A DNA stretch of 5,787 bases. Origin: a virus. Taxonomy: Duplodnaviria > Heunggongvirae > Uroviricota > Caudoviricetes. Positions 1,788-2,237 of this stretch are shown here, piece by piece (the stretch's first letter is position 1; every line of letters starts with the position of its first letter). The position numbers were made by a program, and so were the translations under genes. Where the stretch lies: positions 1 to 5,787 of the IMG/VR virus record IMGVR_UViG_2623620501_000014. One strand, 5' to 3'. The notes beneath the pieces are model-generated. The model saw only the letters and a list, made by a program, of their open reading frames with translations, did not search any database and was not told the DNA's origin.

Positions 1788-2237
1788 TCAGCCAACAAAT
1801 TTTGCAATTAAATACGTAGCCGCCGCTGTAAAAAGCGAAGTAAAGACGGCTATACACACGGGTATAATGATGCCACTCAACCGCCACTTCGTATTATCAT
1901 CAACTTTGTCAAACCGCCGATTCATCTCATCCATAATCTTGTCAAAGCGTTTATCCATCGCTTCGGTAATCTCACCCTTCAGGCTGTTAATGTCTGATTT
2001 GATCTGATCTTTCAGGTGAGCTGTATCAGATTTAAGCTCCCCTTTCAGATTCGCAATATCGCATTTAAGATCACCTTTCAGATGTGCTGTGTCTGCTTTG
2101 AGCTCACCTTTCACCTCACCAACATCGGCTTTGGTTGAAAGGTTTGTAGCGCGTTCAGCAAGCGTCGCAAGGTCGTTTCTTGTTAGCGATAAATCACCTT
2201 CGAGTCGCTCAATTCGCCTTTCAAGTTTATCTGACAT
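1788..2237 (-). CDS. Hypothetical tail-anchored coiled-coil membrane protein with five 11-residue repeats (149 aa from the ATG; 186 aa if it starts at in-frame GTG 2348)
   Basis: ATG at 2237-2235 preceded by GGAGGTGG (Shine-Dalgarno-like); TAA at 1790-1788. N-terminal charged helical region (MSDKLERRIERLEGDL...), five hendecad repeats of consensus xDxAxLKGELK, then a C-terminal ~29-residue hydrophobic segment (LSGIIIPVCIAVFTSLFTAAATYLIAKFVG). No family recognised. Confidence 0.7.
   Translation of the reverse strand: MSDKLERRIERLEGDLSLTRNDLATLAERATNLSTKADVGEVKGELKADTAHLKGDLKCDIANLKGELKSDTAHLKDQIKSDINSLKGEITEAMDKRFDKIMDEMNRRFDKVDDNTKWRLSGIIIPVCIAVFTSLFTAAATYLIAKFVG
1966..2130. repeat. Five imperfect tandem 33-bp repeats inside the coiled-coil CDS
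   Basis: Units at about 1966-1998, 1999-2031, 2032-2064, 2065-2097 and 2098-2130, sharing the core TTAAGnTCnCCTTTCAG. Each encodes one 11-residue repeat on the minus strand (SDINSLKGEIT / SDTAHLKDQIK / CDIANLKGELK / ADTAHLKGDLK / ADVGEVKGELK). Confidence 0.8.

Follow-up and report, generated by a model that had tools for sequence, protein, structure and literature searches.

The stretch of DNA analysed here (5,787 nt; hereafter the window, that is, the whole of positions 1 to 5,787 of IMG/VR record IMGVR_UViG_2623620501_000014, assigned to Caudoviricetes) carries on its minus strand five tandem 33-bp coding repeats, and the best explanation for this array, one that we hold with considerable confidence, is that it forms the central coiled-coil stalk of a small tail-anchored inner-membrane protein of a P2-like prophage. 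The array is the stalk of an already named family (DUF1640/CCDC90-like/Bdr), a connection that was overlooked in the first-pass annotation of the window. Read in the codon register that begins with Lys, from 2132 down to 1968, the units are KADVGEVKGEL, KADTAHLKGDL, KCDIANLKGEL, KSDTAHLKDQI and KSDINSLKGEI, which lie in tandem, in frame and in register within an open reading frame (ORF) of 186 codons (1788–2348, minus strand). The five in-register coding repeats that the first-pass annotation had reported are borne out by Tandem Repeats Finder (TRF), by their spacing and by comparison with codon shuffles (z = 8.7), with the limits given there (1966–2130) shifted by 1–2 nt.

Periodicity and architecture of the stalk

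Over 77 residues of the array helix, the hydrophobic period has its spectral maximum at 3.69 residues per turn (11/3 = 3.67), and residues 39–69 ahead of it give a heptad-like 3.57, with a and d positions that we read by hand as I46, L49, L53, T56, L60, L63 and A67. The 38 distinct units found across relatives follow the consensus K-[SAC]-D-[ITV]-A-x-L-K-G-E-[LFI], in which the core positions are 4 (I/T/V), 7 (L) and 11 (L/F/I), Lys occupies positions 1 and 8, and Asp and Glu occupy positions 3 and 10, respectively; in the protein of the window, hydrophobic residues keep a 3-4-4 spacing over seven hendecads (11-residue units) after the beta-layer. Placed on an 11/3 helical wheel, these residues form a hydrophobic stripe that takes up three of the 11 positions, with Lys along one edge and Asp/Glu along the other, and the core of the stalk corresponds to the a, d and h positions (for example, V76, V79 and L83). 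This is the pattern of a hendecad coiled coil, that is, a 3-4-4 core with a period of about 3.67 residues held over several units.

The AlphaFold2 (AF2) model, which is of a monomer and was built from 21 aligned homologues (mean predicted local distance difference test (pLDDT) score of 63), is consistent with this pattern. Residues 1–38 are disordered (pLDDT below 50 over residues 1–36) and are followed by helices at 39–69, 73–148 and 151–185, with breaks at 70–72 (L-S-T) and 149–150; the helical periodicity for which structure prediction had been suggested as a check thus appears as one continuous helix over residues 73–148. The only strongly hydrophobic segment lies near the C terminus: the best 19-residue Kyte–Doolittle window (2.17, residues 159–177) contrasts with values of 0 or below in every other segment, and the helix is preceded by K-W-R (with W155 invariant) and followed by only four residues, which is the topology of a tail anchor. 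Both W155 and P163 are invariant among aligned relatives. The array had been described as directly preceding the membrane anchor; instead, two degenerate hendecads and about eight further residues intervene before the transmembrane helix. A sister subgroup lacks exactly one of the degenerate hendecads and reads EAMDKRFDKLDEKARWK there.

The junction between the heptad-like helix and the array is marked by L70-S-T-K-A-D75, which matches the beta-layer motif except that Ser replaces the Ala seen in relatives (L-A-T-K-A-D) and in which T72, K73 and D75 are invariant across the 21 aligned relatives. Beta-layers of this kind were solved in trimeric coiled coils as a nonad, that is, a-b-c, then the beta-layer, then e-f-g (IAN-MAT-KDD), by Hartmann et al. 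2016 (PMC4786415), are known only from trimeric coiled coils, and have a consensus, [aliphatic]-A-T-K-[polar]-[DE], that is prominent where the C-terminal stalk of DUF1640 membrane proteins begins (PMC4786415). In the repeat protein, the heptad register puts the beta-layer at position d, as in the published nonad, and the AF2 helix breaks exactly there. The same nonad stands between two coiled-coil segments in Tcar0761, in Actinobacillus OMP100 and in the stalks of trimeric autotransporters, and beta-layer constructs (7o92, 7oah, 5apz, 5apt and 6h9l) are the best, non-significant, PDB matches of the profile; unlike these coiled coils, the protein of the window has a single beta-layer, and its repeating unit is an alpha-helical hendecad rather than a nonad.

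Because beta-layers are trimer-specific elements, we suggest that the stalk would most likely assemble as a parallel trimer. With hydrophobic residues at a, d and h and 11 residues per three turns, it would form a near-straight, slightly right-handed helix bundle that projects about 16 nm from the inner membrane (about 11 nm contributed by residues 73–148 and about 4.6 nm by the heptads). The bundle would face the cytoplasm, given that a signal peptide is absent and that only four residues follow the transmembrane helix.

The same 11-residue periodicity would also be expected of an amphipathic helix of class-A-like type, lying flat against the inner membrane on its cytoplasmic side and sensing or remodelling the bilayer near its anchor, a reading that we consider improbable. 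It would accommodate the strength of the periodicity, the large hydrophobic moment at about 97–98 degrees per residue and the tethering of the array close to a membrane anchor, as well as a weak match to the Pfam Apolipoprotein family shown by 13 of the 21 family members and the fact that ApoA-IV is the top (non-significant) PDB sequence match for the single protein. However, the Apolipoprotein match (PF01442) scores 22.2 bits against a cut-off of 90, and the class-A layout (that is, a broad hydrophobic face bordered on both sides by basic residues) is not what the wheel gives: a face of three positions in 11, with Lys to one side of it and Asp/Glu to the other, is the layout of salt bridges between helices. 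Moreover, the array opens at the trimer-specific beta-layer, 31 residues separate it from the transmembrane helix, and the head-bearing relatives that carry the same repeat come from a family in which it is described as a stalk. Apolipoproteins A-I, A-IV and E, alpha-synuclein and the 11-mers of LEA proteins therefore have the 11-residue amphipathic periodicity in common with the array, along with weak Pfam and PDB matches, and differ from it in its narrow stripe, asymmetric charge flanks and coiled-coil context. Of the two helix classes between which the first-pass annotation had left the choice, the right-handed coiled coil is upheld by the period of 3.69, the AF2 helix and the beta-layer, whereas the surface helix of apolipoprotein, LEA or synuclein type is not, and the helical wheel that had been proposed as a check speaks against it.

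Family membership and relatives

The best Pfam match of the repeat protein is PF07798 (CCDC90-like, formerly DUF1640; 28.2 bits, E = 2e-6), over profile positions 67–151 of 175 only, that is, the stalk and anchor, and 15 of the 21 close relatives match this profile at E <= 0.01. The order of elements that characterizes PF07798, a coiled-coil stalk and then a single C-terminal transmembrane anchor, is present, and RefSeq labels homologues as "DUF1640 domain-containing protein" or "CCDC90 family protein". A family profile searched against 1.84 billion representative proteins returned 1052 relatives and, at E of about 1e-10, includes head-bearing proteins that score 45–52 bits against PF07798 (above its threshold) over profile positions 1–173 and carry the same hendecad arrays (for example, ELKADVAEVRNEL). 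Judged by these similarities, the repeat protein is a headless member or close relative of the known DUF1640/CCDC90-like superfamily, and the hendecad array is the hallmark stalk of that superfamily.

The DUF1640/CCDC90-like family includes human MCUR1 and CCDC90B, yeast Put6 and Put7 and many bacterial and phage proteins, and is reportedly (in the account of Adlakha et al. in Structure in 2019) conserved in prokaryotes and organelles. In common with its members, the protein of the window is small, has a stalk of K-x-D-I-A-x-L-K/R-x-E-L hendecads that is opened by an L-[AS]-T-K-x-D beta-layer, and has (K/R)-W ahead of its single C-terminal anchor. Unlike them, it is headless: where canonical members carry the globular head, it has a disordered peptide of 37 residues, a Gly linker and four heptads, and its gene has a coupled Zn-ribbon partner in the slot between int and att of a P2-like prophage. 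The 37-residue peptide contains a conserved K-x-E/G-x-G-V-T-P-I-R followed by the terminal Gly-rich linker GGGGNSGGG, and residues 17–66 match phrog_6324. One relative (P0011, from the European Nucleotide Archive (ENA), 140 residues) has the Gly linker joined directly to hendecad 2, with the heptads, beta-layer and unit 1 deleted; it is known from a single contig of 651 nt, and either a natural deletion or a fault of assembly could account for it.

Searching plasmids at the protein level (tblastn) returned Borrelia "Bdr family repetitive proteins" (E = 3e-6 to 8e-4), among them a Bdr of B. miyamotoi (L016) that reads as a head, LTFKDL, KSDIMSVKSDL repeats and then HKWMFG and a transmembrane helix. 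An hhalign comparison of the repeat protein with Bdr gives a probability of 94% over the repeats (40 aligned columns). The central 11-residue array and C-terminal hydrophobic anchor by which Bdr proteins are recognized are both present in the protein of the window. The two are further alike in their units (KSDIMSVKSDL versus KSDINSLKGEI), in an anchor of the form H/K-W followed by a transmembrane helix, in being borne on prophages or plasmids (cp32 prophages and linear plasmids in Borrelia) and in a repeat number that varies between alleles; the 11-residue Bdr repeats of variable copy number have been known since about 1999. They differ in that Bdr has the N-terminal domain that defines it in NCBIfam, a spirochaete host and large paralogous families, and the similarity is confined to the repeats: the B. 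miyamotoi Bdr scores 80.4 bits against NF040499 (Bdr_N_group1), whereas the protein of the window has no match to this N-terminal domain at E <= 1.

Closer in layout are the gp26-type DUF1640 proteins of Liberibacter phages SC1 and SC2, which are likewise headless, read Y-L-A-T-K-A-D followed by four to five copies of KQDIANVRTEL and a K-W anchor, and are 37% identical to the protein of the window from beta-layer to anchor (tblastn). Unlike the gene described here, theirs belongs to another phage type, adjoins a primase gene, and lacks both the Gly-linker extension and the Zn-ribbon partner. A nucleotide search of phage collections found no match, and at the protein level the matches were limited to the Liberibacter phages and a single phage-like record from Klebsiella. 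Among the literature on hendecad repeats, we found nothing specific to the DUF1640/CCDC90-like family.

A second way to read a coiled coil that ends in an anchor is as a lysis or membrane-damage factor of the XhlA type, in which the coiled coil would act as a zipper that oligomerizes the transmembrane helix into a lesion, leading to lysis or abortive infection. Weak matches to Pfam XhlA (PF10779, E = 0.011, residues 116–171) and, in PHROG, to phrog_1193 ('hemolysin'; E = 0.0037, residues 114–169) point that way, as does the shared layout of a coiled coil, D-x-N-x-K-W and a transmembrane helix. We nevertheless regard this possibility as slight, as the PF10779 match reaches 16.4 bits against a threshold of 34.7 and is limited to the region next to the anchor, leaving the repeats uncovered, and the gene lies in the repressor–int operon, outside the late or lysis region, and is stably carried in lysogens.

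History and copy number of the repeats

At the DNA level, TRF detects a period of 33 at 2009–2113 (3.2 copies, 73% matches), and a separate repeat search finds the 33-nt spacing from 1969 to 2117. The units have a mean pairwise identity of 65% in nucleotides and 52% in amino acids. Self-identity at a lag of 33 is 0.64 for the 165-nt array, compared with 0.29 +/- 0.07 for all 165-nt segments of the window, and the maximum for the window (0.652, in the segment starting at 1969) falls inside the array; 20,000 codon shuffles gave 0.29 +/- 0.04 with a maximum of 0.46. Identity between units at codon positions 1, 2 and 3 is 0.67, 0.77 and 0.50, respectively, and because it peaks at the second position and is lowest at the third, the units are old copies kept alike through selection on the protein, with no recent expansion.

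Among close homologues, the number of units, counted between the conserved flanks ...NLSTKAD and EAMDKRFDK, is always whole: by cluster representative, there are two units in 4, three in 4, four in 14, five in 8, six in 3 and seven in 2. The first and last units are kept and internal ones are lost or duplicated (A-D-E, A-B-D-E, A-C-D-E, A-B-C-D-E and A-B-C-C-D-E), and the beta-layer Thr and the pre-anchor Trp of 35 out of 42 close relatives lie 39, 50, 61, 72, 83 or 94 residues apart. An extension of this rule to distant relatives, that is, a distance kept modulo 11 throughout, fails, and the rule is valid only within the close subfamily. Given that one unit would make exactly three turns, gain or loss of a whole unit would shift the length of the stalk by about 1.6 nm while keeping the core register and angular phase, and in-register recombination could add or remove units without altering the phase between beta-layer and anchor; this sparing of register and phase would explain why alleles of two to seven units all appear to be functional.

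The variation looks like the outcome of occasional in-register recombination rather than of high-frequency slippage. The longest identical stretch between adjacent units in the allele of the window is 10 bases, which makes slippage there unlikely; recent duplications do occur, as seen from one allele (L013) with three near-identical units, an exact run of 61 nt between neighbours and 89% TRF matches. The suggestion in the first-pass annotation that copy number may vary between strains through slippage or recombination holds for the variation itself (two to seven whole units in homologues), whereas slippage is unlikely in this allele.

A role for the array as a contingency or antigenic-variation locus, at which frequent slippage would vary a surface-exposed or host-interacting epitope, is in our view very improbable. 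Copy number does vary among homologues, some alleles have near-identical neighbouring units, and Borrelia bdrT has about nine versus six repeats in different strains (PMC3303823). Against this stand a unit length that is a multiple of three, so that no on/off switching would result, the short identity between neighbours and the divergence of third codon positions already described, an apparently near-uniform array length among E. coli carriers of the gene (39 of 5426 complete genomes), and a protein that has no signal peptide and an array predicted to be cytoplasmic. A further reading, in which the ORF has no function and its periodicity is owed to chance or low complexity, has in its favour only the general point that short, imperfect repeats may come about randomly, and it is next to impossible in view of the z of 8.7 against codon shuffles, the position of the window-wide maximum of lag-33 identity within the array, and the conservation of the ORF in three genera with invariant motif residues and more than 1000 relatives.

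Start site and Zn-ribbon partner

The repeat gene is preceded by an ORF that encodes 132 residues, in the same frame and separated by one stop: the TGA of this partner gene (2349–2351) abuts the GTG start of the repeat gene (2348), and the partner start overlaps the stop of the integrase gene by 14 nt (Table 1). GGAGG at 8 nt before the start, within the partner's W-E-G codons, is also found in type-A loci of E. coli and Salmonella (including L002, L003 and L006). In a Klebsiella locus (L009), the upstream stop again abuts a GTG, with no clear GGAGG from the preceding codons; L013 has the arrangement TAA-A-ATG, a +1 offset with its own ATG replacing GTG; and in type-B loci the partner and stalk ORFs overlap in another frame. 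We considered readthrough of the stop codon, which would fuse the Zn-ribbon and stalk ORFs, and rejected it on the basis of the stop itself (TGA in E. coli, TAA in Salmonella and Klebsiella), the offset and separate ATG of L013, and the overlap in another frame at type-B loci. The junction looks like one of termination–reinitiation (translational) coupling, which we prefer because it explains every arrangement of the locus.

RefSeq, through the Prokaryotic Genome Annotation Pipeline (PGAP), starts homologues at the internal ATG (2237 in the window), which gives a protein of 149 residues and omits the extension of 37 codons. In E. coli, Salmonella and Klebsiella, this extension is an open frame that is no less conserved than the remainder of the protein; together with its Shine–Dalgarno sequence and the abutting stop and start, it indicates that the long form is probably real and that the RefSeq start at M38 is probably too far downstream. 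M38 is invariant among aligned relatives, and a second initiation there, giving two isoforms, is possible.

All CxxC cysteines of the partner, a predicted zinc ribbon, are invariant across its homologues, and nearly all of the P2-like loci that we examined (in E. coli, Salmonella and Klebsiella) have such a homologue upstream of the stalk gene; in E. coli L003 and in the Salmonella loci it is uncalled, with the reading frame intact. The match to phrog_4293 is to a family of unknown function, and searches of Pfam, NCBIfam and PADLOC with the partner gave no match. Its profile search of the PDB found only a CxxC match to COX5B (E = 0.27), and its AF2 model (mean pLDDT of 64.6) gave as the best Foldseek match in the PDB the zinc ribbon of NrdR, which is weak (E = 0.9). 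Two types of partner exist, of 132 and about 166 residues, and the stalk protein has a different type of N-terminal extension with each; its N-terminal peptide co-varies with the partner. A distant headless relative (P0069; L018, Logan SRR6159228, 816–1761) has an unrelated partner of 147 residues that is not a zinc protein and stands beside a Gp49/HTH (helix-turn-helix; HigBA-like) pair, which implies that the stalk protein is able to occur with other partners and in other settings. A pentapeptide, VTPIR, is shared by the Zn-ribbon protein (YVTPIRKENGPIS) and the stalk extension (GVTPIRDGIS); its two copies show no co-variation in Salmonella and Klebsiella, and the sharing is probably a coincidence.

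Location in the prophage

Positions 1–1678 of the window are 99.6% identical to the btuE–btuC segment of E. coli K-12 and the region upstream of btuC, and this homology ends at 1678, at the terminator hairpin of ihfA. By this comparison, a P2-like prophage has inserted between ihfA and btuC, and its left end makes up the window from 1679 onwards. On the minus strand stand, in order, an HTH repressor, the tyrosine integrase, the Cys-rich ORF of 132 residues and the repeat ORF, which makes the repeat gene the final prophage gene before attL; on the plus strand are the early genes DUF4761 and DUF4754, to which related genomes add the replication endonuclease gene gpA. A scan of the minus strand found no terminator-like site between the repressor and the repeat gene, and the first such site downstream of the latter is the hairpin at 1678–1664; as the junction lies exactly at this hairpin, the prophage appears to reuse the host terminator, and btuC is now downstream of prophage transcription. 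The order repressor (C), int, Zn-ribbon gene, stalk gene and attL is kept in E. coli, Salmonella and Klebsiella, at two integration sites, and the stalk and partner pair is also found, between int and tail genes, in an excised phage-like Klebsiella record.

Table 1 Features of the prophage end that carries the stalk gene
Feature	Position	Strand	Evidence
Terminator hairpin of ihfA, GGCCGCTCTGCGGCC, with T-run; junction of chromosome and prophage on the attL side	1664..1678	-	End of K-12 homology; terminator scan
Repeat-protein ORF, long form of 186 codons from GTG 2348, stop at 1788–1790	1788..2348	-	ORF list
Single C-terminal transmembrane helix, about residues 157–182	1803..1880	-	Kyte–Doolittle; AF2
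Two degenerate hendecads, residues 128–149 (TEAMDKRFDKI and MDEMNRRFDKV), continuing the array helix	1902..1967	-	Sequence; AF2
Five 33-nt units, hendecads 1–5 of the stalk (residues 73–127)	1968..2132	-	TRF; 33-nt spacing; AF2 helix
Beta-layer nonad A67-T-N / L70-S-T72 / K73-A-D75, joining heptad helix to hendecad stalk	2124..2150	-	Consensus match; AF2
N-terminal heptad coiled-coil segment, residues 39–66, four heptads	2151..2234	-	Hydrophobic period; AF2 helix
Internal start ATG (M38, 2237–2235) with GGAGG (2246–2242) 4 nt upstream, inside Gly-linker codons	2235..2246	-	Sequence; PGAP
N-terminal extension, residues 1–37, predicted to be disordered	2238..2348	-	AF2; conservation
Partner, 132 residues, predicted zinc ribbon with CxxC pairs C48/C51 and C103/C106	2349..2747	-	phrog_4293; invariant Cys
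Shine–Dalgarno GGAGG for the long form, 8 nt before GTG 2348, inside the partner's W-E-G codons	2357..2361	-	Sequence
P2-type tyrosine integrase, upstream and in the same direction	2734..3726	-	Pfam Int_N and Phage_integrase; RefSeq

Several further observations concern this locus. The only complete genome that is 100% identical over window positions 1852–2800 (E. coli 300709, L001) has an IS3-family element (an insertion sequence; 4733–5946) that sits, at about window position 1852, within the codons of the transmembrane helix and truncates the anchor. A strong sigma-70-like promoter match on the plus strand (4081–4110, TTGACA-18-TATATT, 11/12) is directed towards the early genes and overlaps the repressor gene at its 5' end, where the Pe/Pc switch of a P2-type phage would be expected. 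In the early region, a small plus-strand ORF (5354–5467) encodes a hydrophobic peptide of 37 residues, MSIFISWLVLIISVACAIGIMRIIHSVKKTERFFTGE, and corresponds to a hypothetical gene of 114 nt in homologous prophages; TRF also reports two short low-score repeats there (4798–4826 and 5491–5510, with periods of 14 and 8), which are probably insignificant.

Possible role of the stalk and its partner

In P2, the repressor gene and int are co-transcribed from Pc in lysogens. Given that the stalk gene is the last in the string of repressor, int, Zn-ribbon and stalk genes, with no earlier terminator and with a coupled start, we suggest that it probably acts in the lysogen as part of a two-protein accessory (moron) module. 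The membrane-anchored stalk would position or tether its N-terminal peptide, and probably the Zn-ribbon partner too, at a set distance from the membrane. The interval between int and att in P2-like prophages has been described as a minor defence hotspot that holds 3% of P2 systems (PMC13586616). On the basis of the position behind repressor and int, the coupling to the partner and this reported hotspot, superinfection exclusion or anti-phage defence would be the likeliest category for such a putative role. The more specific proposal that the Zn ribbon and headless stalk are an undescribed exclusion or defence pair expressed in lysogens, with the number of hendecads serving as a ruler that would set the distance from the membrane and tune the reach to a target, is one that we put forward as rather doubtful.

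A number of results weigh against the proposals made here, from the structure of the stalk to its role. The oligomeric state and topology are inferred, with AF2 giving a model of the monomer only; neither the single sequence nor the profile of the family had a significant match in the PDB, the best profile match (E = 0.015) lying partly over GCN4 adaptor sequence and 6h9l giving E values of 0.84–2.7. The PF07798 score of 28.2 bits falls short of the gathering threshold of 33.5, and the DUF1640/CCDC90-like head domain is absent, as profile positions 1–66 are unmatched in the repeat protein; moreover, similarity between coiled-coil repeats can inflate profile scores, so that the case for homology is carried mainly by the beta-layer motif, the repeat unit and the anchor. 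As to the copy-number series, nearly all of the 39 E. coli carriers seemingly have five units (judged from equal-length ungapped matches over the array), which speaks against rapid change in length, and whole-unit insertions and deletions are expected from recombination between tandem repeats anyway and are no proof of selection on register. As to the role, PADLOC-DB v2 contains no significant defence match for either gene, the best for the stalk protein being to ZorA (E = 1.3e-4, 18.8 bits) over the coiled-coil part only; the partner has no informative match in sequence or fold; and the inference of a role is weakened by the related Borrelia Bdr proteins, which are without known function (PMC10016077).

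Significance

The array is the stalk of a named family with homologues that are labelled in RefSeq, and to that extent it is known. The finding connects three literatures that are rarely linked (that is, those on DUF1640/MCUR1, on beta-layer coiled coils and on Bdr), and the natural alleles, in which the beta-layer and the anchor stay fixed and two to seven hendecads lie between them, provide a ready series of lengths for tests of stalk length. With a conserved Zn-ribbon partner in a defence-hotspot slot, the genetics of E. coli and P2 could be used to find the function of the family. If true, the reading of the pair as an exclusion or defence module would offer a first way into the function of the bacterial DUF1640/Bdr family.

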